NCBI GenBank assembly: GCA_045541135.1
Contig: JAZQIO010000006.1
Coordinates: 11,512-75,511 of the forward strand
Direction of reading: 5' to 3'
Length of the DNA: 64,000 nucleotides
Source of the DNA: Clostridia bacterium
Lineage (GTDB): Bacteria > Bacillota > Clostridia > Monoglobales > Firm-18
In this document: piece after piece, positions 888 to 55,134 of the stretch
How the letters are laid out: every line of letters starts with the position of its first letter
How positions within the stretch are numbered: the stretch's first letter is position 1
Program-made: the position numbers and the translations under genes
Notes under the pieces: generated by a model
Databases searched by the model: none
What the model saw: the letters and a program-made list of their open reading frames with translations, nothing else
Told to the model about the DNA's origin: nothing

Positions 888-1726
888 TACTTAAAAACAA
901 TGACATTAAGGTTACAATTTCTGCACTTGGTGCAGAAATTGTAAGCGTTTTAAAAGACGGTAAGGAAAAAATGTGGTGTGCAGACCCCGACGTATGGGGG
1001 ATGTGTGCCCCCATAATGTTCCCTGTATGCGGTGGACTTAAGGACGACAAATTTATTTTTGAGGGTAAGGAATACACACTTGGCAAACACGGCTTTGCAC
1101 GTTTTATGGAATTTGAAGTAGAAAGTGCAGAGGAAGAAAAGGCTGTATTTTTGCTTCGTTCTAATGAGGAAACCCTAAAACAGTATCCCTTTGACTTTGA
1201 ATTTCGTGTTGCTTACACAATAAGCGGTGGGGATATTAAGGTTGAATACATAACCAAAAATGCAGGTAGCGGGGATATGTACTTTTCCGCAGGTGCTCAC
1301 GAAGGCTATGCCTGCCCCGGCGGTATTGAAAACTACAGCATAATTTTTGAAGAAGAGGAAGACCTTGTAAGCAATGTTTTAGAGGGTAATATTCTTGGCT
1401 ACAACACAGTAAATGTGGGTAGCGGTACAAGGGAATTAAAGCTTAAAGACGAATTTTTCAAGGTTGACGCACTTGTGTTTTTAAACTTAAAATCCAAAAA
1501 GGTATGGCTTAAAAATAATGTAAACGGCGAAAGTCATTCCGTAGAATTTAAGGGTGCACCTTATCTTTTACTGTGGACAAAATACAAGGCGGAATACATT
1601 TGCATAGAGCCTTGGTTTGGTATTTCGGACTTTACTGACAGTAATATGGATTTTGCCAATAAAAAAGGTATTACAAAACTTGTACCCGGTGAAGTTTGTA
1701 TAAATACACACACAATTTCTTTTTGA
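872..1726 (+). CDS. aldose 1-epimerase (galactose mutarotase-like, LacX-type) family protein
   Basis: 284-aa ORF overlapping the iolB stop. FPVCGG, GKHGFAR and EPW motifs are typical of the family. Confidence 0.7.
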   Translation: MAEQIILKNNDIKVTISALGAEIVSVLKDGKEKMWCADPDVWGMCAPIMFPVCGGLKDDKFIFEGKEYTLGKHGFARFMEFEVESAEEEKAVFLLRSNEETLKQYPFDFEFRVAYTISGGDIKVEYITKNAGSGDMYFSAGAHEGYACPGGIENYSIIFEEEEDLVSNVLEGNILGYNTVNVGSGTRELKLKDEFFKVDALVFLNLKSKKVWLKNNVNGESHSVEFKGAPYLLLWTKYKAEYICIEPWFGISDFTDSNMDFANKKGITKLVPGEVCINTHTISF

Positions 1727-2060
1727 GGGAATGTAAAAAAAGTCCAGACCGCAAAAAGAGGATAAAAATAAGAAATTCAAGTTATTTGTAATTTGCAAAA
1801 CATCTTAATTTGGTTGAAAAATCTCATTTTATTCGATTTTTCCTATTTTTCAAATCTTTTTGCTACGAACAAACTTCACCTCTACAGTCGATTTCAACTG
1901 CTCAACGACGTCGCAAGCGACTTGTTTTGCAGGAAATCTTTGTATGGGTGCTGTTCGCAAAATCGAAGATTTTGACAGCACCGCATCTCGTATACACATA
2001 CAGCTTCGGGTAACCCCTGCGGGTTCAGTTTGTCCATTCTGAACATTTTTTCCTATTCCC
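1727..2060. repeat. Intergenic repeat type 2, copy A (334 bp), imperfect terminal inverted repeats, hairpin-rich
   Basis: Starts right after stop TGA 1724-1726. Left end GGGAATGTAAAAAAAGTCCAGA; rc of right end GGGAATAGGAAAAAATGTTCAGA. Shares ends and core blocks with 13706-13937 and the core with 10460-10527. Confidence 0.6.
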
Positions 2061-4240: not shown

Positions 4241-5592
4241 TGAAAATTATAGTTTGTGTAAAGGTAATAAAGGGAGAAATTAACCCATTTGACGAATCCG
4301 CATTGGAATGTGCACTTACCCTTTCCAATGACGTTACGGTTTTGTCAATGGGTCCGAAATCCTGCGAGGATGCATTAAAGCCACTTACACGCCTTGGTGC
4401 TAAGGTGGTGCTTATAAGTGACGGTGTATTTGCAGGGTCTGATACCCTTGCTACGTCGTACATACTTTCTACTGCAATTAAAAATATGGAATACGACCTT
4501 ATTTTATGCGGCAGACAAAGTATAGACGGTGATACTGCACAGGTAGGGCCAATGCTTTCGCAGATGCTTGGATGCTTACTTGTTACCAATGCACTTTCCG
4601 TTGAAGTTAAAGAAAATGAAGTTTTTACAAAAACACGTATGGGTGATGAAACAGTAAAAACACCTGCACTAATAACTTTAGAGCGTGGGTACATTTTACG
4701 CTTTCCAAGCATTTTTTCAAAGGTTGGGGAAGTTAAGATTATTGACAATTCCTCACTTAACTGCGATTTGTCAAGGTGCGGTCTTTCAGGCTCACCTACA
4801 AAGGTTTTACAGTCCTTTGAAAATGAACGTGGAAAAAGAAAGTGTAAATTTATAACAATGGCAGAACTTTTGCCTCTTGTTGAAAAGCTTAAAGGTGAAA
4901 ATGTAAAAAGTGAAAAAAGTACATACAGCGGTGTTAAGTTAAAAGCTGTGTGGGCTGTTGGCGAAAGGGTACTTGAAAAGGCAAGGGAAATAGCGGAAAA
5001 GGTTGTTTTAATTGATGAAATGACTCCCGAAGAAATTGCACAAAAGGCTATGAAGGAAAAGCCCGATGTTGTACTTTGGAATGCAGACTTGTGGGGCAGA
5101 AAAAATGCACCTGTTGTGGCGGCAATGCTGAGTACGGGACTTTGTGCCGACTGTACACACCTTGAAACCGACGGAGAAACACTCTTTATGTACCGTCCTG
5201 CACAGGGGGGTAACATTACCGCAAAAATAAAGTGTACTGCAAAGCCACAGATGGCAACTGTACGCACAAAATCCGAAAGCTCGGACATTATTGTTTCAGG
5301 CGGCAAGGGTGTTGGAGACAGTATAGATAAACTGCACGACCTTGCAAAAAAGCTTGATGCACAGCTTGGCGCATCACGGGGACTTGTGGATTTAAACGGT
5401 GCACCCTACGAGCATCAGGTTGGTTTAACAGGTAAAACCGTAAGCCCTAAAATTTACATTGCAGTCGGTATTTCAGGTGCTATACACCATACCGTTGCAA
5501 TAGAGGGTGCAGGAACGGTTATTGCCATAAATCCCGATAAGGATGCAAGGATTTTTGAGTATGCTGACTATGGCATAATAGATAGAATATAA
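4240..5592 (+). CDS. Fused electron-transfer flavoprotein (EtfB-like N-half + EtfA FAD-binding C-half)
   Basis: N-half: MKIIVCVK, GRQSIDGDTAQVGP, GLSGSPTKV (EtfB). C-half: PKIYIAVGISGAIHH, AINPDKDARIF (EtfA). ATG overlaps the kinase stop (TAATG). Confidence 0.8.
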   Translation: MKIIVCVKVIKGEINPFDESALECALTLSNDVTVLSMGPKSCEDALKPLTRLGAKVVLISDGVFAGSDTLATSYILSTAIKNMEYDLILCGRQSIDGDTAQVGPMLSQMLGCLLVTNALSVEVKENEVFTKTRMGDETVKTPALITLERGYILRFPSIFSKVGEVKIIDNSSLNCDLSRCGLSGSPTKVLQSFENERGKRKCKFITMAELLPLVEKLKGENVKSEKSTYSGVKLKAVWAVGERVLEKAREIAEKVVLIDEMTPEEIAQKAMKEKPDVVLWNADLWGRKNAPVVAAMLSTGLCADCTHLETDGETLFMYRPAQGGNITAKIKCTAKPQMATVRTKSESSDIIVSGGKGVGDSIDKLHDLAKKLDAQLGASRGLVDLNGAPYEHQVGLTGKTVSPKIYIAVGISGAIHHTVAIEGAGTVIAINPDKDARIFEYADYGIIDRI

Positions 5593-5625
5593 TGAATAAT
5601 TAATAATTAATAATGAATAATTATG
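5593..5625. repeat. AATGAATAAT-type short tandem motif directly after a stop codon
   Basis: tgaataattaataattaataatgaataatt. The same motif recurs at 10716-10744 (rc) and 13668-13702, each at a gene 3' end. Confidence 0.5.
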
Positions 5626-5628
5626 GTG

Positions 5629-6974: not shown

Positions 6975-8651
6975 TTATCTTATTTCACATGTTTCAACAA
7001 AGTCCATATCGTCAAATTCCTGGTTTTCACCGCACATTGCCCAGATAAAGGAATATGCCTTTGTACCAACGCCTGAATGAATTGACCAGCTTGGTGAGAT
7101 TACAGCTTCTTCATTGTGCATTACAATATGTCTTGTTTCTGTAGGTTCACCCATCATATGGAATACTGCATCATTTTCACCCATATCAAGATACAGATAA
7201 ACTTCCATTCTTCTGTCGTGTGTATGTGTTGGCATTGTGTTCCAGTTTGAGCCGGGTTCTAACTGTGTAAGACCCATTGTAAGCTGACAGCTTTTAATTA
7301 CATCCGGATGAATGTATTGGTTAATTACACGCTTGTTGCAGTCTTCAACTGAACCAAGTGGCACCTTTTTAGCCTTTTCAATATCTATTTTAACAATTGG
7401 GTATGATGCATGTGCAGGGCATGATGATACATAGAATTTTGCAGGGTTTTCAGGGTCAATGCTCTTAAATGAAACTTCCTTGTTGCCCATACCTATGTAA
7501 ATACCGTCACGTGGGTTCATTTCATATTCTGTGCCGTCAATTGTTATAACACCCTTGCCACCTATGTTGATACAGCCCATTTCACGTCTTTCCAAAAAGT
7601 ATTCGCTTGCAAGCTCCTTGCCGCCTTCTAGTGAAAGTGATCTTGCAACAGGCATAAGACCTGCTGTTATAATTCTGTCAATATGGCTGTAAACCATTCT
7701 GATGTTATCCTTTGTGAAAAGCTTGCTGATGTGGAATTCTTCTCTTAGTCTTTCTGTTGTGTAGTGTTTTACGTCTCTTGGGTTTGAAGCGCATCTGATT
7801 TCCATTTTACTTAAATCCTCCTTAATATATTTTCCGTATACTTCAATTTGTGTAAGTGCCGCAAATGAAAGTATTTCGGTTGCCTGAATAAAGTTTTTCA
7901 GGCGTATGTATTTTGTTGTTTTTTTGTTTACAGTAATTTCCTGACCCTTTGAATTTTCGGGGTTAAGGTCGGTGTTATCCATTGTAAATTCTCCGTGTAT
8001 TACTTCGCCGTCGGAAAATTCAATGTCAATATTTTTCCAGTATGAATCGTGTGGAAGGCCCGTTCTTTCTTCATGCTTAAAGTCTGCACGTAGGTAGAAA
8101 ACAAGCTTTTCAACCTCAACATCACAGCCAAAGTCAAGTACATATTCAAGGTCATCTCTTGCACCGCCTGCCCATGAATGGTATGGGTATTTGCCGTGAC
8201 CCTGGTTATTTATAACACCGTCTATTGCGTTACGTTCGTAAAAAGTCGGGTTTTCACGGGTAACAAAGTTTGCGGTTGAATGTGGATAGCCCCTTGTTTT
8301 TCCCTTAAGGTCGTGGGAATTAAGGGCAATGTTACGGTATGCGTAAATTTCTTCTTCACTTGGTTCACGTACGGATATAACCTGAACTTCTTTTGAAAAA
8401 GCATCGGGATTATATGCTGCCGCCAGTACCTTTGGTGATGGGACTGTAAATTCATAGTTACGGTCAGGTACATAAAGTATGCTTTCAGCAAGTGTTTCGT
8501 CAAACTTTACGGCAATATAGTCGCAACCGTCAAGAAGTACCTTTATTTTATCACCCTCCAAAAGAGTGCCTTTGTATTCGGCTTTTATGCTTTCGCCCTT
8601 TTGGGTAAGCTTTACTTCCTTATCGTTTCCGATAATTTTTAAAGTTAGCAT
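6975..8651 (-). CDS. kduI: In-frame fusion: 282-aa discoidin/F5-8-C-like domain + 276-aa 5-dehydro-4-deoxy-D-glucuronate isomerase (KduI)
   Basis: Continuous 558-aa ORF. The C-terminal 276 aa (ATG 7805) match full-length KduI (MPTHTHDRRMEVY, SPSWSIHSG). GGAGGTGA SD before ATG 8651, and a second SD, AAGGAGGA 7816-7823, before ATG 7805. Confidence 0.75.
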   Translation of the reverse strand: MLTLKIIGNDKEVKLTQKGESIKAEYKGTLLEGDKIKVLLDGCDYIAVKFDETLAESILYVPDRNYEFTVPSPKVLAAAYNPDAFSKEVQVISVREPSEEEIYAYRNIALNSHDLKGKTRGYPHSTANFVTRENPTFYERNAIDGVINNQGHGKYPYHSWAGGARDDLEYVLDFGCDVEVEKLVFYLRADFKHEERTGLPHDSYWKNIDIEFSDGEVIHGEFTMDNTDLNPENSKGQEITVNKKTTKYIRLKNFIQATEILSFAALTQIEVYGKYIKEDLSKMEIRCASNPRDVKHYTTERLREEFHISKLFTKDNIRMVYSHIDRIITAGLMPVARSLSLEGGKELASEYFLERREMGCINIGGKGVITIDGTEYEMNPRDGIYIGMGNKEVSFKSIDPENPAKFYVSSCPAHASYPIVKIDIEKAKKVPLGSVEDCNKRVINQYIHPDVIKSCQLTMGLTQLEPGSNWNTMPTHTHDRRMEVYLYLDMGENDAVFHMMGEPTETRHIVMHNEEAVISPSWSIHSGVGTKAYSFIWAMCGENQEFDDMDFVETCEIR

Positions 8652-10325: not shown

Positions 10326-10575
10326 GGCTAAGATTTTGGCGACGAACGTTCAAAGGCAATGAAAAGGTAAATGAAGATAGTGATAATTTTTATTTGTAAT
10401 TATAGTTGTTTGGTAGGAATCCGTAGAAACACGGATTCCTTTTTTGCCTTTGAACTATAAACAAACTTCACCCTTGACGTACCATTGTACGCCTTCGGGT
10501 AACCCTACGGTTCAGTTTGTTCATTCTTCATCCAAAATCCCTACGCCTTTTAAGGCTGTGATTTTGGCGATGAAC
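10323..10575. repeat. Composite repeat region B: 25-bp direct repeats flanking a 12-bp inverted repeat, a terminator hairpin and the type-2 core
   Basis: DR TAAGGCTAAGATTTTGGCGACGAAC (10323-10347, begins with the stop TAA) vs TAAGGCTGTGATTTTGGCGATGAAC (10551-10575). IR GTTCAAAGGCAA 10348-10359 / TTGCCTTTGAAC 10444-10455. Core 10460-10527. Confidence 0.55.
10414..10446 (+). terminator. Rho-independent terminator (hairpin B1)
   Basis: AGGAATCCG / CGGATTCCT 9-bp stem followed by TTTTTT. Confidence 0.6.
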
Positions 10576-10617
10576 CTTTATAGTTGATAGTAGATAGTTG
10601 ATAGTGGATAGTTATGG

Positions 10618-10706: not shown

Positions 10707-10715
10707 ACCAAAACT

Positions 10716-10744
10716 ATTCATTATTCATTATTCATTATTCACTG
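10716..10744. repeat. AATGAATAAT-type tandem motif (reverse orientation) abutting the AraC stop codon
   Basis: The rc reads cagtgaataatgaataatgaataatgaatag, immediately 3' of the minus-strand gene ending at 10745. Confidence 0.5.
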
Positions 10745-11542
10745 TTAATTTTGCTTTGCAAAATTAAATGCCGTTTCGCCCATATACTTTTTAAACATTT
10801 TGCTGAAGTAGTAAATGTCTTCAATATTAACTTCCTTTGCGGCTTCGGATACGCTGAATTCACCTGTTTTCAGTAGTTCCGAAGCTTTTTTTATTTTAAG
10901 CATATTTTTATATTCTATAGGTGACATACCTGTTATTTTTTTAAACTTTCTGCGAAATGTAGCAGGACTTGTAAAGCACATTTTTGCAATTTCGTCTACA
11001 TTAATTTCGTTCATATAATTATTTTCTATATAGAGTATACCTTTATTTATGGTGGAATCCTTGTTATCCTTTGCAAGCACGTCTGTAAGCAGTCCGTTAT
11101 ATATTTCCCAGAATATTGACTGCCCTTTTATTTTGTAACCAAGCTTGCCCTTTTCAAAAACATCTGCAAGTGATAAAAACAGGTTTAAATATATGCCGTA
11201 TTTGTCATTTGATATTACAAACATACTGTCGGATATAACACAGCCGTCTGCCATTGAAAACATTATGGATATAGCCTTGCCCTTTGGATTTTCCTCCCAT
11301 TTTGAAACATAGGTTGCATCGGGAGGAAGATACAAAATATCCCCTTTTTTGGTTACAAGCTTTGTACCGTCTTCTAAAATAAAGGTCTGCACACCCTCTT
11401 GTATATAAAAAAAGCGCTCTGTAGATAACTGCCCCTTTGTACGTACCGTGGTGCGGTCTACCTTTGATATTATATTACTGTAAAGCTTTGAAAGACAAAG
11501 GTCTTTATCTAAAAGCTTTTTTATGTGCTCGGTATTGTTCAA
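10745..11542 (-). CDS. AraC-family transcriptional regulator
   Basis: C-terminal AraC HTH (SPATFRRKFKKITGMSPIEYK..., IEDIYYFSKMFKKY). TTG start with GGGGTGA SD. Confidence 0.8.
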   Translation of the reverse strand: MNNTEHIKKLLDKDLCLSKLYSNIISKVDRTTVRTKGQLSTERFFYIQEGVQTFILEDGTKLVTKKGDILYLPPDATYVSKWEENPKGKAISIMFSMADGCVISDSMFVISNDKYGIYLNLFLSLADVFEKGKLGYKIKGQSIFWEIYNGLLTDVLAKDNKDSTINKGILYIENNYMNEINVDEIAKMCFTSPATFRRKFKKITGMSPIEYKNMLKIKKASELLKTGEFSVSEAAKEVNIEDIYYFSKMFKKYMGETAFNFAKQN

Positions 11543-12941: not shown

Positions 12942-13683
12942 TTGTTGTATAGATATGATGTTTTCATACTGCGATTTTTACGATAGGTTTGAGGAAGTTA
13001 AAAAATGCGGTATAGATACAATAGAATTCTGGAAATGGTCAAATAAAATTATAAGTAAAATTCAAGACAGCGGACTTAATGTTTCTGTTTTTAACCTTGA
13101 CAGTACTGACGAAGAGCTTTCCTACCACCTTTCAAGAGGTATTATAAACGACGGCAGAGTTGATGACTTTTTGCAGGCGTTGGAGGAAAGTATACCTGTT
13201 TACAAGGCTTTGGATGCAAAGGCTATGATAGTGCTTATTGGTGAAAATGCACCCTACAGTGAGGAAAATGTTATAAAGTGCTTAAATGCCGCAAAGCCTA
13301 TGCTTAATGAATACGATGTTAACTTGGTTGTAGAGCCTTTAAATAACATAGACAGAGTGGGTTATTCCATGCCCTACGCAAAGCCCGTTTTTGAAATGTT
13401 AAGAAAGGTAGGAAGCCCTCGTATAAAGATGCTTTACGACATTTATCACCAGAATATGATGGGTGATTTTTCAATGGAGGATATAAGGGAAAACATATAT
13501 ATTATAGGACATTTTCACGTTGCTGATGCACCGGGCAGAAACGAGCCGGGTACAGGCAAGGTGGACTATGTAAGCATTTTAAAAGAAATTAAAAAGCTTG
13601 ATTATAAGGGTTATATTGGTCTTGAATACAAGGCTACTCAAAAAGACCAAGCTACGCTTGGCTTTTTAATGAATAATGAATAG
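12934..13683 (+). CDS. Sugar phosphate isomerase/epimerase (xylose-isomerase-like TIM barrel; hydroxypyruvate isomerase-like)
   Basis: 249-aa ORF; HFHVADAPGRNEPGTG and GLEYK motifs. TTG 12934 lies 9 nt after GAGG. The C-terminal MNNE* is encoded by the AATGAATAAT repeat. Confidence 0.7.
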   Translation: MISCCIDMMFSYCDFYDRFEEVKKCGIDTIEFWKWSNKIISKIQDSGLNVSVFNLDSTDEELSYHLSRGIINDGRVDDFLQALEESIPVYKALDAKAMIVLIGENAPYSEENVIKCLNAAKPMLNEYDVNLVVEPLNNIDRVGYSMPYAKPVFEMLRKVGSPRIKMLYDIYHQNMMGDFSMEDIRENIYIIGHFHVADAPGRNEPGTGKVDYVSILKEIKKLDYKGYIGLEYKATQKDQATLGFLMNNE

Positions 13684-13702
13684 TTAATAATGAATAATGA
13701 AG
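13668..13702. repeat. AATGAATAAT-type tandem motif spanning a stop codon
   Basis: aatgaataatgaatagttaataatgaataatgaa. It supplies the last codons and the stop of the TIM-barrel gene. Confidence 0.5.
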
Positions 13703-13705
13703 GAA

Positions 13706-13937
13706 GGGAATGTAAAAAAAGTCCAGAACGCAAGAAAAAACAAAAAGCAAGATATTATCAATAAAATAATCGAATTAAATTTATGAAAACAAGGTAGAAA
13801 AATCGAAATTGTTCGATTTTTCATAAAATTACTTTTTTCTTGCTATGAACAAACCTCCCCCGAGCCGTACCATCGTACTGTCTCGGGTCACCCCTTCGAT
13901 TCGGTTTGTCCATTCTGAAACATTTTTTCCTATCCCC
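13706..13937. repeat. Intergenic repeat type 2, copy C (232 bp)
   Basis: Left end GGGAATGTAAAAAAAGTCCAGA is identical to copy A; rc of right end is GGGGATAGGAAAAAATGTTTCAGA. Shares the GAACAAACYTCMCC ... GGTTYRGTTTGTCCATTCTGAA core. Confidence 0.6.
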
Positions 13938-33910: not shown

Positions 33911-34252
33911 TTATTTATTTATATCATTTAAAAGCTTGTTGATATGTGCACCGTGCTCTATAGAATTATCAAGTGTAAACAATATTTCCGGTGTATAGCG
34001 AAGACCAAGTCTGTGAGCAAGCTCCTTACGTACAAAGCCTGCTGCATTTTTTAGTCCTTCAATTGCATCCTTCTGTGCGTTTTCATCACCAAAAACACTG
34101 ATATACGCCTTGCACCAGCGAAGGTCTTTTGTTATATCAACAGCTACCACACTGCAAAGACCCTTAGTAACCCTTGGGTCTTTGAGTTCCCGTATAATTG
34201 AACTTATTTCTTTGCGTGCTTCTTCATTAATTCTGTCTATTCTGTTTGCCAT
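33911..34252 (-). CDS. rbfA: Ribosome-binding factor A
   Basis: MANRIDRINEE... Start set to ATG 34252 after AGGAGAA. The ORF's upstream 16 codons lie inside the repeat element. Confidence 0.85.
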   Translation of the reverse strand: MANRIDRINEEARKEISSIIRELKDPRVTKGLCSVVAVDITKDLRWCKAYISVFGDENAQKDAIEGLKNAAGFVRKELAHRLGLRYTPEILFTLDNSIEHGAHINKLLNDINK

Positions 34253-34264
34253 AAGCAATTCTCC

Positions 34265-34540
34265 TAGCCGAAAGAGAATAATCCGAACCTCGATTTTCAA
34301 AGGTGAATTTCCGCTTTCGTTTTGTTAAAATACTCGGCAATCCATCAAGGATTACCTGCGTTTTTGCCTTACGCAACCAAAAATTCTCTCTTTGAAAATT
34401 CCATGACCTTAAACAGATGGAATTTCGAGCAGATTTTGGTGCGGAAGATGAAGCAAGGCTGACGCCTTGCGAAGATGACAAGCCTGAAGATACCGAAATT
34501 ACGCTGTTTAAGGCGGGTTCGGGTTACTATCTTTCGGCTA
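34265..34540. mobile_element. MITE-like non-coding element type 1, copy 1 (276 bp, ~25-bp TIRs)
   Basis: TIRs TAGCCGAAAGAGAATAATCCGAACC vs rc TAGCCGAAAGATAGTAACCCGAACC. Second copy at 54176-54450 (17 substitutions + 1 indel by hand). TA on both flanks; no conserved ORF. Confidence 0.65.
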
Positions 34541-36787
34541 TCTTGGGATTTCTTCCATTACGAAGCATTCGATAACATCGCCTTCTTTAATGTCATTGAA
34601 TCTTTCGATACCGATACCGCATTCGTAACCTGTAGGAACTTCCTTTGCATCGTCTTTAAATCTCTTAAGTGAATTCATTGTACCTTCGTGTACAACAATA
34701 CCGTCACGTACAATACGAACTTCACAGTTTCTGACAATTTTACCATCTGTTACATAGCAACCGCCGATTGTACCAACGCCTGAAATCTTATATGTCTGAC
34801 GGATTTCTGCATGACCGATAACATTTTCTTTGAATGTAGGCTCAAGCATACCCTTCATAGCGGCTTCGATTTCTTCGATAGCCTGATAAATTACTCTGTA
34901 AAGTCTTACTTCAACATTCTGACGTTCTGCAGATTCCATAGTAGCCGCAGAAGGTCTTACATTAAATCCGACAATAATAGCATTTGAAGCAGAAGCAAGC
35001 ATAATATCAGATTCACTGATTGTACCTGCGGCACCGTGAATAACATTAATTCTTACTTCATCATTTGAAAGCTTAACCAAAGACTGTTTGATTGCTTCAA
35101 CAGAACCCATAACGTCTGCCTTAATGATAATGTTAAGGTCTTTAATCTGACCCTGTTCAATCTGAGTAAACAAAGCATCAAGAGAAACAACTGTCTGTGT
35201 CGACTTGTTGTATTCATCCTTAATTTTCTGCTTTCTCTGTTCTACAACCATACGGGCTTTTCTTTCATCAGTTACGGCATAGAATAAGTCACCGCCTTCG
35301 GGAACTTCAGAAAGGCCAAGAATTTCAACAGGCATACTTGGACCTGCAGATTTTATTCTCTTACCGCCGTCATCAACCATAGCACGTACTTTACCTACTG
35401 CTGTACCTGCTACAACTATATCGCCAACATTAAGTGTACCATTCTGTACCAAAACTGTAGATACAGGACCTCTGCCCTTATCAAGTTTAGCTTCGATAAC
35501 TGTACCCTTAGCCATTCTGTCAGGATTAGCCTTAAGTTCCTTCATATCCGCAACCAAAAGTACCATTTCAAGCAATGTGTCAATATTGTCACCACGTAGA
35601 GCAGAGATCGGAACAACAATTGTGTCACCGCCCCATTCTTCAGGAACAAGACCGTGTTCTGTAAGCTGCTGCTTAACAAGATCAGGATTTGCAGTTTCTT
35701 TATCAATTTTATTGATAGCAACAATAATTGTTACACCTGCAGCTTTAGCATGGTTAATAGCTTCAATAGTCTGAGGCATAATACCGTCATCAGCCGCAAC
35801 AACAAGTATTGCAACGTCAGTAACCATAGCACCGCGAAGACGCATAGCTGTGAACGCTTCATGTCCCGGTGTATCAAGGAAAGTAATATCTCTGTCATTA
35901 ATATGAACTCTGTAAGCACCGATATGCTGTGTAATACCGCCTGCTTCTGTATCTATAACGTGAGTACGTCTGATATAGTCAAGAGTTTTTGTCTTACCGT
36001 GGTCAACGTGACCCATGATAACAACAACCGGTGGACGTGGTTGCAAGCTTTCTTCAGGGTCTTCAACGTCATTGAACAAAATATCTTCGTCTGTAACAAT
36101 AACTTCTTTTTCTACTGTTGCGTTAAATTCAGAAGCAATAAGTGATGCAGTATCAAAGTCAATAAGCTGACTTACAGATGCCATAACACCAATCATCATC
36201 AGACATTTTACAACTTCATTTGCAGGTTTGCCCAATTTTTCGGCAAATTCACCTACAGCAATTTCGTCACCCATATATACTACAACATTTTCGGCAACTT
36301 CTTCTTTTTCCTTCTTTTCCTTAACAAGCTTTTCGTTTTTATTTTCCATCTTATTGCTTGTTTTATTCTTTTTGATTTTCTGCTTTTTATCAGTTTTATT
36401 TGTATCAATATTTTGAGGAACAAGTTCTTCCATTTTTTCAGTATCAAACTTTTCAAGATCAACACTTACAGTTCTTGTGTCAACATATCTTGATTTTTTC
36501 TGAATAGGAGCATCGTCTATAATTTCCTCAACATTTTCAACTACGTCTTCTTTTTTCGCCTTTTTTGTTTCCTTTTTGGACTCAGCATTCTTTTTATCAA
36601 AACCGAAATCTTCTACCTGATATTTTTGTGTATAGTGTTCAAAAACTATATCAAGCTCATTTGCTTCAATAGAACTTTGTGCACTTTTAGCCTTACTTCC
36701 AAAAGTTTGCAACAGTTCTAACATTTCATTTTTATCAACGCCCAAATCTTTAGCTAAGGCACTTATTTTAATTTTAACAGCTGCCAT
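34538..36787 (-). CDS. infB: Translation initiation factor IF-2
   Basis: 749 aa; GTPase domain GHVDHGKT / DTPGH / NKID. The stop TAG 34538-34540 is the terminal TAG of the repeat element. Confidence 0.95.
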
Positions 36788-52174: not shown

Positions 52175-54163
52175 TCAGTTCCAGGTTTCCTCCAATGTCA
52201 TTGAAAGTTCGCCGTCAAAATACACATCAATGTAACTCACATTCGAAGAAGACGGCTTTGCAACATTAAATGAGAATGAAAACTCATCCTTGCTGTGTTT
52301 TTTGTAATAAATCTGAGACCCATCCTGATTTACCTTAACCAAAACAGTATCCCTGTCCTGAGGAAGATTTATTGTAATATTTTTCATCTGTGCTGCTTCT
52401 TCTGCCTTTTTAAGTGTTAAATGAATAACAGCACCCTCTGCAACTACATTGCCTTCATATACTGCTTTTTTTCCACCTACGGAATCTTCATCTTCAACAA
52501 ACATACCTGTTACAACATAATGGTCAGGTGCACCGGCTGGGTCAGTACCACCAAGGTCAAGACCGTTATTTTTCAGCCATTCCTTAGCATCCTTAAGCTT
52601 TAATTCTGTAATATTTTCCATTTTAACGCCCTTGATACCCAAATACACGGTTATTTCATCATTTTTTTCCACCATAGTATCTGCCTTGGGCTCTGTTTTT
52701 AAAACCTTGCCGATACTTTCTGTTTCGGTAACCGGCTCTTTTACAACATTGACGGTAAAGTCATAATCCTTTTCATAATTTTTAAGCTCTTTTTCATATT
52801 CCTTTTCCGTCATACTTACAAGATCAGGCATCATAAAGCTGTCAAAAGGAACTGCAACTCTTATGGTTATGGTATGTTTAGCCTTTATAGTATCTCCGGG
52901 CTTAGGATCCTGAGATAAAACAACACCTTCTTTTTGGTCGCTCTTTTCTTCAACAACTTCAATTTTAAAGTTACCGCCGTTTTCCATATCGTATTTTTCA
53001 ATAACAGCCTTGTAATCCATACCCATAAGATTAGGAGTTTCCAGAGTTTTGGTTGTACAACCGGAAAAACCGCCACCTAAAAGTCCCCACAATACAAGCC
53101 ACATAGCAAGGACAATAACCGCAAAGGATGATATAATCGCCAAAGCAACTGCTGTTTTTGTACCCTTTTCGGCAGGCTTTTTATTTTTATCGGTTGTTCT
53201 TCTTCCGTCGGTATGTACAGGTCTGCGTGCTGTACTACCCGCTTCACTATCAGGCTTATGATTAGGCTTAGGCTCGGGCTTTACAGGTTCCATTTTAATT
53301 GTATCACCATAATTAACGGGAACGTCCGGAATAATATGCTCGGATGGCTTTTGCATCGCCTTATTTAAGTCTGCAAGCATTTCTTCGGCAGACTGATACC
53401 GTAAGCTTTGTTCCTTGCTCATAGCCTTTAAAATAATTGCCTCTACAGAAAGTGGAACGGAAATATTAAATTCCTTAGGGCTTACAGGTTTTTCCTGCAT
53501 ATGCTTAATTGCAATTGCAATAGGGCTTTCTCCGTTAAAGGGAAGTATTCCTGTTATAAGCTCGTACATAACAATGCCCAAAGAGTACAGGTCACTTTTT
53601 GCATCGGTATATCCGCCTCTTGCCTGCTCCGGTGAAAAATAATGTACAGAGCCCATTGTACTTTCGCCCATATTTGTGGTTTCGTTTGTAGCCGCACGTG
53701 CTATACCAAAGTCCGTAACCTTAAGCACACCGTCATTTGTAAGAATAATGTTCTGGGGCTTTATGTCACGGTGAATAATACCGTTTTTATGTGCACGGTC
53801 AAGTGCAGAACAAATCTGTATTGCATATTCAACAGTTTCCTGCCATGAAAGCATACCGTTTGCATCAATATATTCTTTTAAAGTCTGACCCTCAACATAT
53901 TCCATAACGATGTAATGAATGTCACCGTCGTGACCAACATCATAAACATTAACAATATTAGGGCTTGAAATTGTTGCGGCAACCTGAGCTTCCTTGTTGA
54001 ATCTTTCTAAAAATTCCTTATCATTTACAAATTCGCTTTTTAAAATTTTAACTGCAACATTTCTGTTAAGCAAACGGCAATGTGCAAGGTAAACATTTGC
54101 CATACCTCCGCTGCCTATTTCTTTTAATAATTCATATCTGTTTCCCAAAATCATACCAATCAT
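52175..54163 (-). CDS. pknB: Ser/Thr protein kinase with PASTA repeats (PrkC/PknB)
   Basis: GSGGMANVY...VAVK, HRDIKPQNIL, DFGIA; one TM, then PASTA-like repeats. Start set to ATG 54163 after GGGAGGT. The ORF's upstream 16 codons lie in the repeat element. Confidence 0.9.
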   Translation of the reverse strand: MIGMILGNRYELLKEIGSGGMANVYLAHCRLLNRNVAVKILKSEFVNDKEFLERFNKEAQVAATISSPNIVNVYDVGHDGDIHYIVMEYVEGQTLKEYIDANGMLSWQETVEYAIQICSALDRAHKNGIIHRDIKPQNIILTNDGVLKVTDFGIARAATNETTNMGESTMGSVHYFSPEQARGGYTDAKSDLYSLGIVMYELITGILPFNGESPIAIAIKHMQEKPVSPKEFNISVPLSVEAIILKAMSKEQSLRYQSAEEMLADLNKAMQKPSEHIIPDVPVNYGDTIKMEPVKPEPKPNHKPDSEAGSTARRPVHTDGRRTTDKNKKPAEKGTKTAVALAIISSFAVIVLAMWLVLWGLLGGGFSGCTTKTLETPNLMGMDYKAVIEKYDMENGGNFKIEVVEEKSDQKEGVVLSQDPKPGDTIKAKHTITIRVAVPFDSFMMPDLVSMTEKEYEKELKNYEKDYDFTVNVVKEPVTETESIGKVLKTEPKADTMVEKNDEITVYLGIKGVKMENITELKLKDAKEWLKNNGLDLGGTDPAGAPDHYVVTGMFVEDEDSVGGKKAVYEGNVVAEGAVIHLTLKKAEEAAQMKNITINLPQDRDTVLVKVNQDGSQIYYKKHSKDEFSFSFNVAKPSSSNVSYIDVYFDGELSMTLEETWN

Positions 54164-54175
54164 AATCAAACCTCC

Positions 54176-54450
54176 CAGCCGAAAGATAATAATCCGAACC
54201 TCGATTTTCAAAGGTGAATTTTCGCTTTCGTTTTGTTAAAATACTCGGCAATCCGTCAGGATTACCTGCGTTTTTGCCTTACGCAACCAAAAATTTTCTC
54301 TTTAAAAATTCCTTGACCTTAAACAGATGGAATTTTGAGCAGATTATGGTGCGGAAGATGATGCAAGGCTGACACCTTGCAAAGATGACAAGCCTAAAGA
54401 TGTCGAAATTACGCTGTTTAAGGCGGATTCAGGTTACTATCTTTCGGCTA
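54176..54450. mobile_element. MITE-like non-coding element type 1, copy 2 (275 bp)
   Basis: Collinear with 34265-34540 along its full length. TIR left CAGCCGAAAGATAATAATCCGAACC, right rc TAGCCGAAAGATAGTAACCTGAATC. Lies between the stp stop and the pknB SD. Confidence 0.65.
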
Positions 54451-55134
54451 CGCCTTTATGATAACTGCGGTAATGTTATCCTTACCACCGCATTGGTTTG
54501 CCGCATCTATAAGCTTTTCAACAATTTCACTTACCTTGGTATTTGCAAGTATATCCGCAATTTCATTTTCTTCAACGTAAGAGCTTAATCCGTCACTGCA
54601 TATAAGTATGTAATCATTTTCCATAAGCTCATGTGTAACACAGTCCACAAGAATATTTTTTTCCGTACCAACCGCACGTGTAATAAGGTTACGTTGAGGG
54701 TGATACTTCGCCTGTTCCTCTGTAATTGTACCGCTGTCTATAAGTTGTTGCACAATAGAATGATCTTTAGTAATCTGTTTTAGGATACCACCGCTGTAAA
54801 GGTAAGCTCTGCTGTCGCCAACATATGCTATGTTTGCTGTAGATCCAAGTATTTCACAAAGTACAACAGTTGTACCCATACCCGAAAGACCGGGGGTTTC
54901 AACAGCCATTTTGTATACCAGGGCGTTGGCATTTATAATTGATTCTTTAAGCCCCACTCCCTGAAGCATAGACTTTTTGATTTCCTCTACTGTCACAGAG
55001 CTTGCGGTTTCACCGCCATTATGACCACCCATACCATCTGCAACAACCGCCCATTTTGCGGATTTGTCAATATAAAAGTTGTCCTGATTTGTCGCTCGTA
55101 CCAGACCAATGTCTGTAGCACCATACATTTTCAT
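54448..55134 (-). CDS. stp: PP2C-family Ser/Thr phosphatase (Stp/PrpC)
   Basis: ADGMGGHNGGE and CSDGLS motifs. The stop TAG 54448-54450 is the terminal TAG of the repeat element. Confidence 0.9.
   Translation of the reverse strand: MKMYGATDIGLVRATNQDNFYIDKSAKWAVVADGMGGHNGGETASSVTVEEIKKSMLQGVGLKESIINANALVYKMAVETPGLSGMGTTVVLCEILGSTANIAYVGDSRAYLYSGGILKQITKDHSIVQQLIDSGTITEEQAKYHPQRNLITRAVGTEKNILVDCVTHELMENDYILICSDGLSSYVEENEIADILANTKVSEIVEKLIDAANQCGGKDNITAVIIKA

Follow-up and report, generated by a model that had tools for sequence, protein, structure and literature searches.

Insertions at the infB–rbfA and stp–pknB junctions of a gut Clostridia bacterium are very probably copies of one TA-duplicating MITE family

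Several described bacterial MITEs carry TIRs and duplicate a TA upon insertion, namely RUP (mobilised by IS630-Spn1), Correia/NEMIS and ERIC (PMC2229807, PMC10969869), and in RUP/IS630-Spn1, Correia and ERIC alike the TIRs are accompanied by TSDs and by TA at the termini (PMC2229807). For known repeats, co-transcription, orientation-dependent effects on mRNA, sites just upstream of genes and repeat-encoded stop codons have been documented (PMC2229807, PMC3049150, PMC10969869); the BOX repeat encodes the stop codon in 36 pneumococcal genes (PMC3049150). In the present work, we analyzed two insertions, one between infB and rbfA and one between stp and pknB, in a 64,000-nt stretch of DNA from a Clostridia bacterium, referred to below as the window.

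Compared with the insertions of the window, ERIC/IRU of the Enterobacteriaceae, especially of Yersinia, is alike in TA duplication, TIRs, co-transcription, RNA hairpins and orientation dependence (PMC2229807, PMC3049150). It has no sequence similarity to our element, is a single hairpin of 127 nt as against ~275 nt with a three-way junction, and resides in Enterobacteriaceae and not in uncultured gut Clostridia; moreover, the main bias found here concerns the downstream SD and not the stop codon. De Gregorio et al. reportedly found in 2005 that ERICs overlapping or adjoining stop codons do so preferentially in one orientation. Correia/NEMIS of Neisseria likewise has TIRs of ~24–26 bp, duplicates TA and often lies immediately upstream of genes, and the long dsRNA stems of both Correia and the present element are plausible, predicted substrates of RNase III; the host phylum and the sequence differ, however, and where some Correia subtypes have outward promoters, we saw a weak TTGAAA-17-TATCTT motif in 10/82 right ends that was not enriched in SD-adjacent copies. 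RUP is also a Firmicutes MITE inserting at TA and is the model of trans-mobilisation by an IS630-family transposase, but it is 107 bp long and its TIRs match a known IS, whereas no partner IS was found for our element in ~1.4 Mb of loci and a metagenome scan. The BOX repeat (PMC3049150) supplies the stop of the upstream gene, as does the present element by TA + G = TAG and in the HisG/HisD genes of locus L040; unlike our element, BOX is modular (boxA, boxB, boxC) and not TA-specific. REPINs/RAYT and IS200/IS605-derived PATEs are similarly hairpin-rich, intergenic and non-coding, but they are devoid of end-reaching TIRs and of target duplication, and their conserved GTAG is absent here. The family is apparently an undescribed MITE family of the known TA-duplicating ERIC/Correia/RUP kind. 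Its mechanism is ordinary, and the sole surprising residue, and the only one that would merit an experiment, is a strong end-specific association with ribosome-binding sites.

The two window copies are 93% identical over 275–277 nt, and the alignment starts precisely at TAG. Both copies and all four flanking genes lie on the minus strand, and the plus-strand CTA at 34538–34540 and at 54448–54450 is TAG on the gene strand, where it forms the stop codon of a 749-aa IF-2 ORF and of a 228-aa Stp1/PP2C ORF, respectively. The coordinates and the description of both insertions in the first-pass annotation were correct. The flanking ORFs were identified as IF-2 (TIGR00487, 837 bits), RbfA (TIGR00082), an Stp1-type PP2C phosphatase and a PknB/Stk1 PASTA kinase, and a conserved ORF was absent from the element itself. 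At its other end the similarity stops at ...CTTTCGGCTA/GGAGAATTGCTTATG before rbfA and at ...CTTTCGGCTG/GGAGGTTTGATTATG before pknB (a slash marks a boundary). On the minus strand, copy 1 reads ...CCA AGA TAG/CCGAAAGATAGTAACCCGAACC...GGTTCGGATTATTCTCTTTCGGC/TA/GGAGAATTGCTTATGGCA and copy 2 reads ...AAG GCG TAG/CCGAAAGATAGTAACCTGAATC...GGTTCGGATTATTATCTTTCGGC/TG/GGAGGTTTGATTATGATT, so that the flanking dinucleotides are TA/TA at copy 1 and TA/TG at copy 2. The TIRs of ~25 nt (TA-GCCGAAAGAnAnTAAyCCGAACC; end pair TAGCCGAAAGA...TCTTTCGGCTA) lie at the very ends of the element. In the MAG JAZQAN01, copies L006 and L016 match copy 1 with identities of 97.5% and 96.7%, respectively. The features of the two loci are as follows.

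34267–34538, minus strand: core of MITE copy 1, 272 nt without the flanking TA, with three hairpins
34539–34540, minus strand: left-hand TA (gene-strand orientation), bases 1–2 of the infB stop; it is the host's copy of the TA that was duplicated, and the empty orthologs have ...CCAAGA TAA/TAG GG... here
34538–34540, minus strand: infB stop TAG, formed by the host TA and the first base, G, of the element (ORF 34538–36787, TIGR00487)
34265–34266, minus strand: right-hand TA, second copy of the target duplication, before the rbfA SD; brings back the native TAGGAG context
34513–34540, minus strand: left TIR of copy 1, TAGCCGAAAGATAGTAACCCGAACCCGC
34265–34292, minus strand: right TIR of copy 1, ...CGAGGTTCGGATTATTCTCTTTCGGCTA
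34250–34264, minus strand: rbfA SD (GGAG, 34261–34264), spacer and ATG (34250–34252), wholly host
33911–34252, minus strand: rbfA CDS, 113 aa (TIGR00082)
34538–36787, minus strand: infB CDS, 749 aa (TIGR00487)
54178–54448, minus strand: core of MITE copy 2, 271 nt, 93% identical to copy 1
54448–54450, minus strand: stp stop TAG, formed by the host TA (54449–54450) and the first base, G, of the element
54176–54177, minus strand: right-hand copy of the target duplication, a mutated TA (gene strand TG, plus strand CA); empty site GCG-TA-GGAGG
54161–54175, minus strand: pknB SD (GGAGG, 54171–54175), spacer and ATG (54161–54163), wholly host
54183–54211, minus strand: weak outward sigma-70-like motif TTGAAA-17-TATCTT at the right end of copy 2, a consensus match only (9/12)
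54448–55134, minus strand: stp CDS, PP2C Ser/Thr phosphatase, 228 aa
52175–54163, minus strand: pknB/stk1 CDS, PASTA Ser/Thr kinase, 662 aa

In the closest MAGs, the orthologous empty loci carry a single TA exactly at the predicted point, the pattern being AGA-TAA/TAG-GG… at infB–rbfA and GCG-TAGGAGG at stp–pknB. The infB–rbfA junction was empty in L128–L134 except L131 and in L139–L141 (RbfA 98–67% identical), with the position of the stop unchanged: L128 (RbfA 98% identical) reads CCAAGA TAA GGTGGTATGTTAAATGGCA, L129 reads TAA GGGGG..., L130 reads CCAAGA TAG GGAGGAGCTTTATTATGGCA, and L132–L134 and L139–L141 read GAGA TAG GAGTAATTTATG. The stp–pknB junction was empty in L208–L210, which read GCGTAGGAGG, specifically AAAGCG TAG GAGGAAGTTTTAATGATTGG in L208 (from the same MAG as L128), GCG TAG GAGGATG in L209 and GCT TAG GAGGTAG in L210. 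Deleting the element and one TA from the window leaves CCAAGA-TA-GGAGAATTGCTTATG and GCG-TA-GGAGGTTTGATTATG, the architecture of the empty orthologs. The pattern was repeated by a third member of the family, for which the filled loci L108/L058 could be compared with the empty locus L027 (...TTTATA TAG GCGGTGATAATATG). At three independent sites, there is a TA at both ends when the site is filled and one TA when it is empty; the TA belongs to the host, with one copy before insertion and two thereafter.

The comparison with empty orthologous sites had been proposed in the first-pass annotation, and the single TA was found where the reconstructed junctions predict it. That the element entered a TAG(G) stop/SD junction at its TA and duplicated this TA was borne out at both loci and by the third family member, and the empty orthologs at both loci also support the regeneration of the TAG stop by the first base, G, of the element. 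The altered duplicate of copy 2 (CA on the plus strand) turned out to be a mutated TA at 54176–54177, since the empty site is GCG-TA-GGAGG. As to the reconstructed junctions, that of infB–rbfA and the stop–SD–start architecture held, but the copy-2 junction, given as GCG TAG GGA GGT..., contained one G too many; the actual removal gives GCG TAG GAG GTT TGA TTA TG, and the empty orthologs read GCGTAGGAGG. Because the first base of the element is G, the left TA always becomes TAG, and because TA is duplicated, the right flank retains its native TA-GGAG context. The stop and the SD are preserved as the mechanical outcome of TA duplication, with no special adaptation; preservation of the signals is a by-product of the insertion chemistry.

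Both features are very probably copies of one non-autonomous cut-and-paste DNA transposon (MITE) family that duplicates TA. All testable defining features of a MITE were found: terminal TIRs, a TSD revealed by filled/empty comparison, small size (mini forms of 52–62 nt up to ~275 nt), no coding capacity, and multiple copies at unrelated loci. A DDE transposase acting in trans, most likely of the IS630/Tc1-mariner type, would make a 2-bp staggered cut at TA, and repair of this cut would duplicate the TA. At both loci, the TA hit would have been the first two bases of the upstream TAG stop overlapping the SD of the next gene (TAGGAG); the left TA and the G of the element would then re-form TAG, and the right TA would restore TA-GGAG, whereby stop, SD and start would be preserved automatically. 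The transcript of the element, a predicted closed three-way junction, would leave SD accessibility unchanged, and since the predicted fold is self-contained, the insertion is probably near-neutral inside essential operons. The IS630/Tc1-mariner assignment is made solely because of the TA target with its 2-bp TA duplication, as no partner transposase was found. In ~1.4 Mb of fetched loci, no TIR pairs 0.6–3 kb apart enclosed a transposase; the ORFs between candidate TIR pairs encoded HisG/HisD, transporters and a methyltransferase-like gene, and no transposase (solo TIRs were inspected too). When one metagenome was scanned for TIRs that lead into non-MITE sequence, only remnants came up.

The family was retrieved with an interior 28-mer and a degenerate TIR pattern. 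More than 118 stretches carry the TIR, in ~30 MAGs of uncultured gut Clostridia from human, roe deer, sheep, goat and buffalo, so that the repeat is far beyond chance; one of the element-carrying MAGs is complete (2.65 Mb). BLAST against the fetched loci gave 58 full copies of 70–100% identity, and many further copies were truncated at contig ends. After removal of orthologous duplicates, a flanking TA was present at 79/82 right ends and 72/77 left ends, the remainder being single-base variants. There were 159 distinct flank clusters, and apart from TA the flanks of other copies were unrelated; the flank survey suggested in the first-pass annotation upheld the TA flanks but no other resemblance. 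Mini derivatives of 52–62 nt consist of the termini and part of one arm only, and termini of roughly 11–25 nt suffice. In L037, a mini element abuts a full copy, with one TA common to both.

To judge the association with gene signals, 54 independent full copies were compared with a null of 8379 intergenic TAs (stop-codon TAs included) from the same loci under identical simple ORF and SD rules; the genes behind this null were called crudely from ORFs, and repeats cause breaks in MAG assemblies. An SD and start lay within 30 nt of an end in 32/54 copies (59%; null 15.6%, p=3e-13), the TA was that of a stop codon in 11/54 (20%; null 10.2%, p=0.02), and both held, making a stop/SD junction, in 8/54 (15%; null 2.3%, p=3e-5). 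The enrichment at stop/SD junctions that had been put forward for testing is real, but it is no rule of the family, as many copies have unrelated flanks and no stop. The window copies are typical of an enriched class, and most copies lie elsewhere, for instance in 3' regions, between convergent genes, within the last codons of genes or next to other MITEs. The left TIR gives a stop within five codons in 2/3 frames. In L040, the HisG and HisD ORFs (965–1597 and 1657–2937) continue past the flanking TA, enter the TIR and terminate in ...IAERE*, the element donating C-terminal residues and the stop codon to both.

A TA followed by A/G and then G (TA-RG) was more frequent at the element (right ends 45%, left ends 26%) than at random intergenic TA sides (6.3%), which suggests an intrinsic target preference, CY-TA-RG, that is met by SD regions (TA-AGGAGG, TA-GGAG). 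The two ends were not equivalent, however. An SD and start lay beside the right end in 36/82 cases and beside the left end in 10/77 (p=3e-4), and stop-codon TAs numbered 16 at left ends and three at right ends (p=0.002). Given a TA-RG flank, SD adjacency was 57% at right ends, 10% at left ends and 16% in the null, and in tandem-gene contexts 21 copies were co-oriented and 10 opposed (p=0.07). Such end-specific SD adjacency is impossible for a symmetric TA-targeting transposase, so an orientation-dependent factor must act after insertion, which points to selection after insertion as what shapes SD adjacency. The strong orientation bias is not predicted by a symmetric TA-targeting transposase and in this respect counts against our main explanation. 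It had been left open whether the transposase prefers TAGG-like targets or whether only neutral insertions survive; both seem to contribute, and we infer that the distribution of the family reflects a TA-RG target preference together with orientation-dependent purifying selection. Three candidate causes of the bias were tried and rejected. Sequestration of the SD by a flipped element was unsupported, as the SD was predicted to be as accessible with the native element (0.50) as with the flipped one (0.50), and almost as accessible at the empty site (0.48). The promoter motif is weak, occurs in 10/82 (12%) of right ends and shows no enrichment in SD-adjacent copies. An antisense terminator does not apply, since only the sense strand has terminator-like hairpins.

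That the repeated unit reaches through GGAGnnTTGnTTATG and includes an SD and start codon of its own was raised as a possibility in the first-pass annotation, and 12/15 bases between the element end and ATG are indeed identical across the two loci. This reading was rejected and is extremely unlikely, because ATGGCA (rbfA) and ATGATTGG (pknB) are found with their SDs in orthologs without the element, which have equal SD, spacer and start and share the N-termini ATGGCAAAC... (RbfA) and ATGATTGGTATGATT... (PknB), and because beyond TA the flanks of other copies are unrelated. The likeness of the 3' flanks (GGAGnnTTGnTTATG) is that of a generic SD and AT-rich spacer, and native sequences in the empty orthologs are equally alike, e.g., GGAGGAGCTTTATTATG and GGAGGAAGTTTTAATG. 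It is also possible that an element itself ending in TA inserts beside a TA without duplicating it, with which TA at both ends and a single TA at the empty site are compatible. A related view is that the family is mobilised as a single strand (Y1/HUH, IS200/IS605-PATE or REPIN-like): the hairpins would be recognition structures, insertion would take place beside TA with no true duplication, and the orientation bias would reflect the replication strand, as Firmicutes genes are co-oriented with replication. Three long hairpins, conserved by covariation and with a strand-asymmetric wobble pattern, the orientation bias relative to genes, and the failure to find a DDE partner in ~1.4 Mb of loci and a metagenome scan would agree with this. 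Nevertheless, single-strand mobilisation is very unlikely, since the long conserved TIRs reaching the ends and the symmetric TA flanks are absent from IS200/IS605 elements and REPINs, neither GTAG nor any other tetranucleotide is conserved 5' of the left end, the minis need termini of only roughly 11–25 nt, and the orientation bias is weak away from gene starts. With TIRs and TA duplication present and no conserved base 5' of TA, the element does not fall under the definition of an IS200/IS605 PATE or a REPIN.

A further explanation, compatible with a MITE origin, is that the element has been exapted as an RNA module and is retained in sense orientation at operon junctions and 5' leaders for a function of the transcript; it could serve as a processing/stability target of RNase III or RNase Y/J, as a 5' protective stem or as a stop-to-SD bridge. 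Both strands are predicted to fold into an outer stem, made by the TIRs, that closes two long hairpin arms (z-score about -7). Across 52 copies, 97% of cells were paired in 80 predicted pairs, and compensatory double changes were seen in 29/80 pairs against 13.4±1.9 in shuffles (0/500 reached the observed value); slid controls collapsed. The arms covary, and the outer helix 1 (TIRs) is sequence-conserved and 97% paired and varies mostly on one side, as would be expected for a transposase-binding site. The covariation speaks for an RNA module, as do the excess of G·U over A·C cells on the sense strand (126 vs 35), the orientation bias (SD right 36/82 vs left 10/77; stop TA left 16 vs right 3), the SD adjacency of TA-RG flanks (57% right, 10% left, 16% null), the metatranscriptome contigs joining the element to its flanking genes, and the precedents of ERIC, whose effect on mRNA depends on orientation, and of Correia, which RNase III cleaves (PMC2229807, PMC10969869). 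However, the SD is predicted to be equally accessible whether the element is native, flipped or missing, and it is the flipped RNA that is the more stable (-132 vs -127 kcal/mol, p=0.003), so that the energies give no support to a preference for the sense strand. Moreover, the G·U excess is explicable by a C-to-T bias on the non-transcribed strand or by the choice of pairs in RNAalifold, and compensatory changes in long DNA palindromes can come from template-switch 'correction' with no selection on RNA. Many copies also lie in convergent or far-from-gene contexts, and the tandem copies divide into 21 co-oriented and 10 opposed (p=0.07). We consider it unlikely that a sense-orientation three-way-junction RNA has been selected as a post-transcriptional module at stop/SD junctions and directly 5' of SDs. 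If it were so, the module could be a processing/stability element, or a scaffold holding the terminating ribosome beside the downstream SD whereby translational coupling outlives a 275-nt insertion, and both the end-specific SD adjacency and the covariation would be explained.

Returning to the reading as a TA-duplicating MITE, presence/absence polymorphism between related genomes was found, as the sister MAG CAZNKU01 (RbfA 98% identical) is without both window insertions and has the family elsewhere (L039, L081). Filled sites at both loci were present in contigs from every ruminant gut metagenome examined, and no joint skipping the element was found in contigs of six gut metagenome/metatranscriptome runs; both insertions look fixed within the species. 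The infB–element and element–rbfA junctions are both spanned by metatranscriptome contigs, in keeping with co-transcription of the element with its flanking genes, although carry-over of DNA is possible. In runs X1–X7, contig depth reached hundreds to thousands over window positions 34184–34447 and 54184–54447 and ~5–10 over the flanking genes; the high depth inside the element indicates that the family is extremely abundant in ruminant gut metagenomes and fragments assemblies.

The two loci provide a worked example of how a TA-duplicating element that starts with G enters essential operons (nusA-infB-rbfA and stp-pknB) and spares stop, SD and start. An abundant MITE family, with a sibling family and minis, is hereby defined in uncultured human and ruminant gut Clostridia. 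The family accounts for contig breaks in these MAGs, and annotators should be wary of the 275-nt 'intergenic' gaps in these operons; the insertions are also usable as strain and species markers.

Left minis were located at L024:4233, L035:7600, L043:3486, L066:5300, L076:1580, L111:7775 and L112:577, right minis at L041:1220, L045:2097, L038:654 and L124:537, and TIR-only hairpins at L086:4367–4419 and L092:6413–6473. The minis of 52–62 nt end at internal pseudo-termini, and the full element has internal copies of TCTTTCGGC and CGAAAGCG that are similar to its termini. It may thus be that the 275-nt element is composite, or that minis are released from it by use of alternative ends. At L237:569–620 and L239:5217–5270, a lone half-TIR (TAGCCGAAAGAAAGTAATCCGAAC) is fused to GTTTTAAGCGTTCGGATTTTTTATTT, giving a hairpin and T-run that resembles an intrinsic terminator made from a remnant of the element.

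A second, related MITE family has the termini (A/G)GCAyrCGGGAGTCGAACC...GGTTCGAnTCCCGyrTGC(C/T), which mimic the T-arm and acceptor end of tRNA. Its forms of ~105 nt and ~276 nt are TA-flanked and have a central GCAAGGCGTCAGCCTTGC hairpin in common with the main family. It was seen at L131:861–1136 and at L041 ~7320–7430, and it adjoins ~17 ends of the main element; it occurs in the flanks of L004, L008, L010, L020, L025, L053, L059 and L065, and also of L073, L076, L081, L097, L105, L114, L121 and L123. The idea that the ~17 abutting sequences resembling tRNA 3' ends (GGTTCGAnTCC...) were tRNAs was dropped, as ARAGORN found no tRNA and Rfam no family, and they are the termini of the second MITE. 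In L131 (MAG JAZSKK01), a copy of this family (AGCACACGGAGATCGAAC...GTGTGCT, ~276 nt, TA-flanked) is inserted at a TA 3 nt beyond the infB stop; the infB–rbfA junction has therefore been hit independently.

Across the window, Rfam 15 gave no match at the gathering score, and only noise on the element at E-values up to 10. A conserved non-coding motif occurs in three intergenic copies, 70–90% identical, at window positions 1726–2060, 10440–10560 and 13705–13936; the copies read ...CTTTTTGCTAyGAACAAACyTCmCC...GTACCATTGTAC...TTCGGGTmACCC...GGTTTGTCCATTCTGAA...; these had no Rfam match above noise. Beside them are AT-rich repeats of the TAATGAATAAT type at 5573–5626, 10581–10617, 10715–10762 and 13663–13703.
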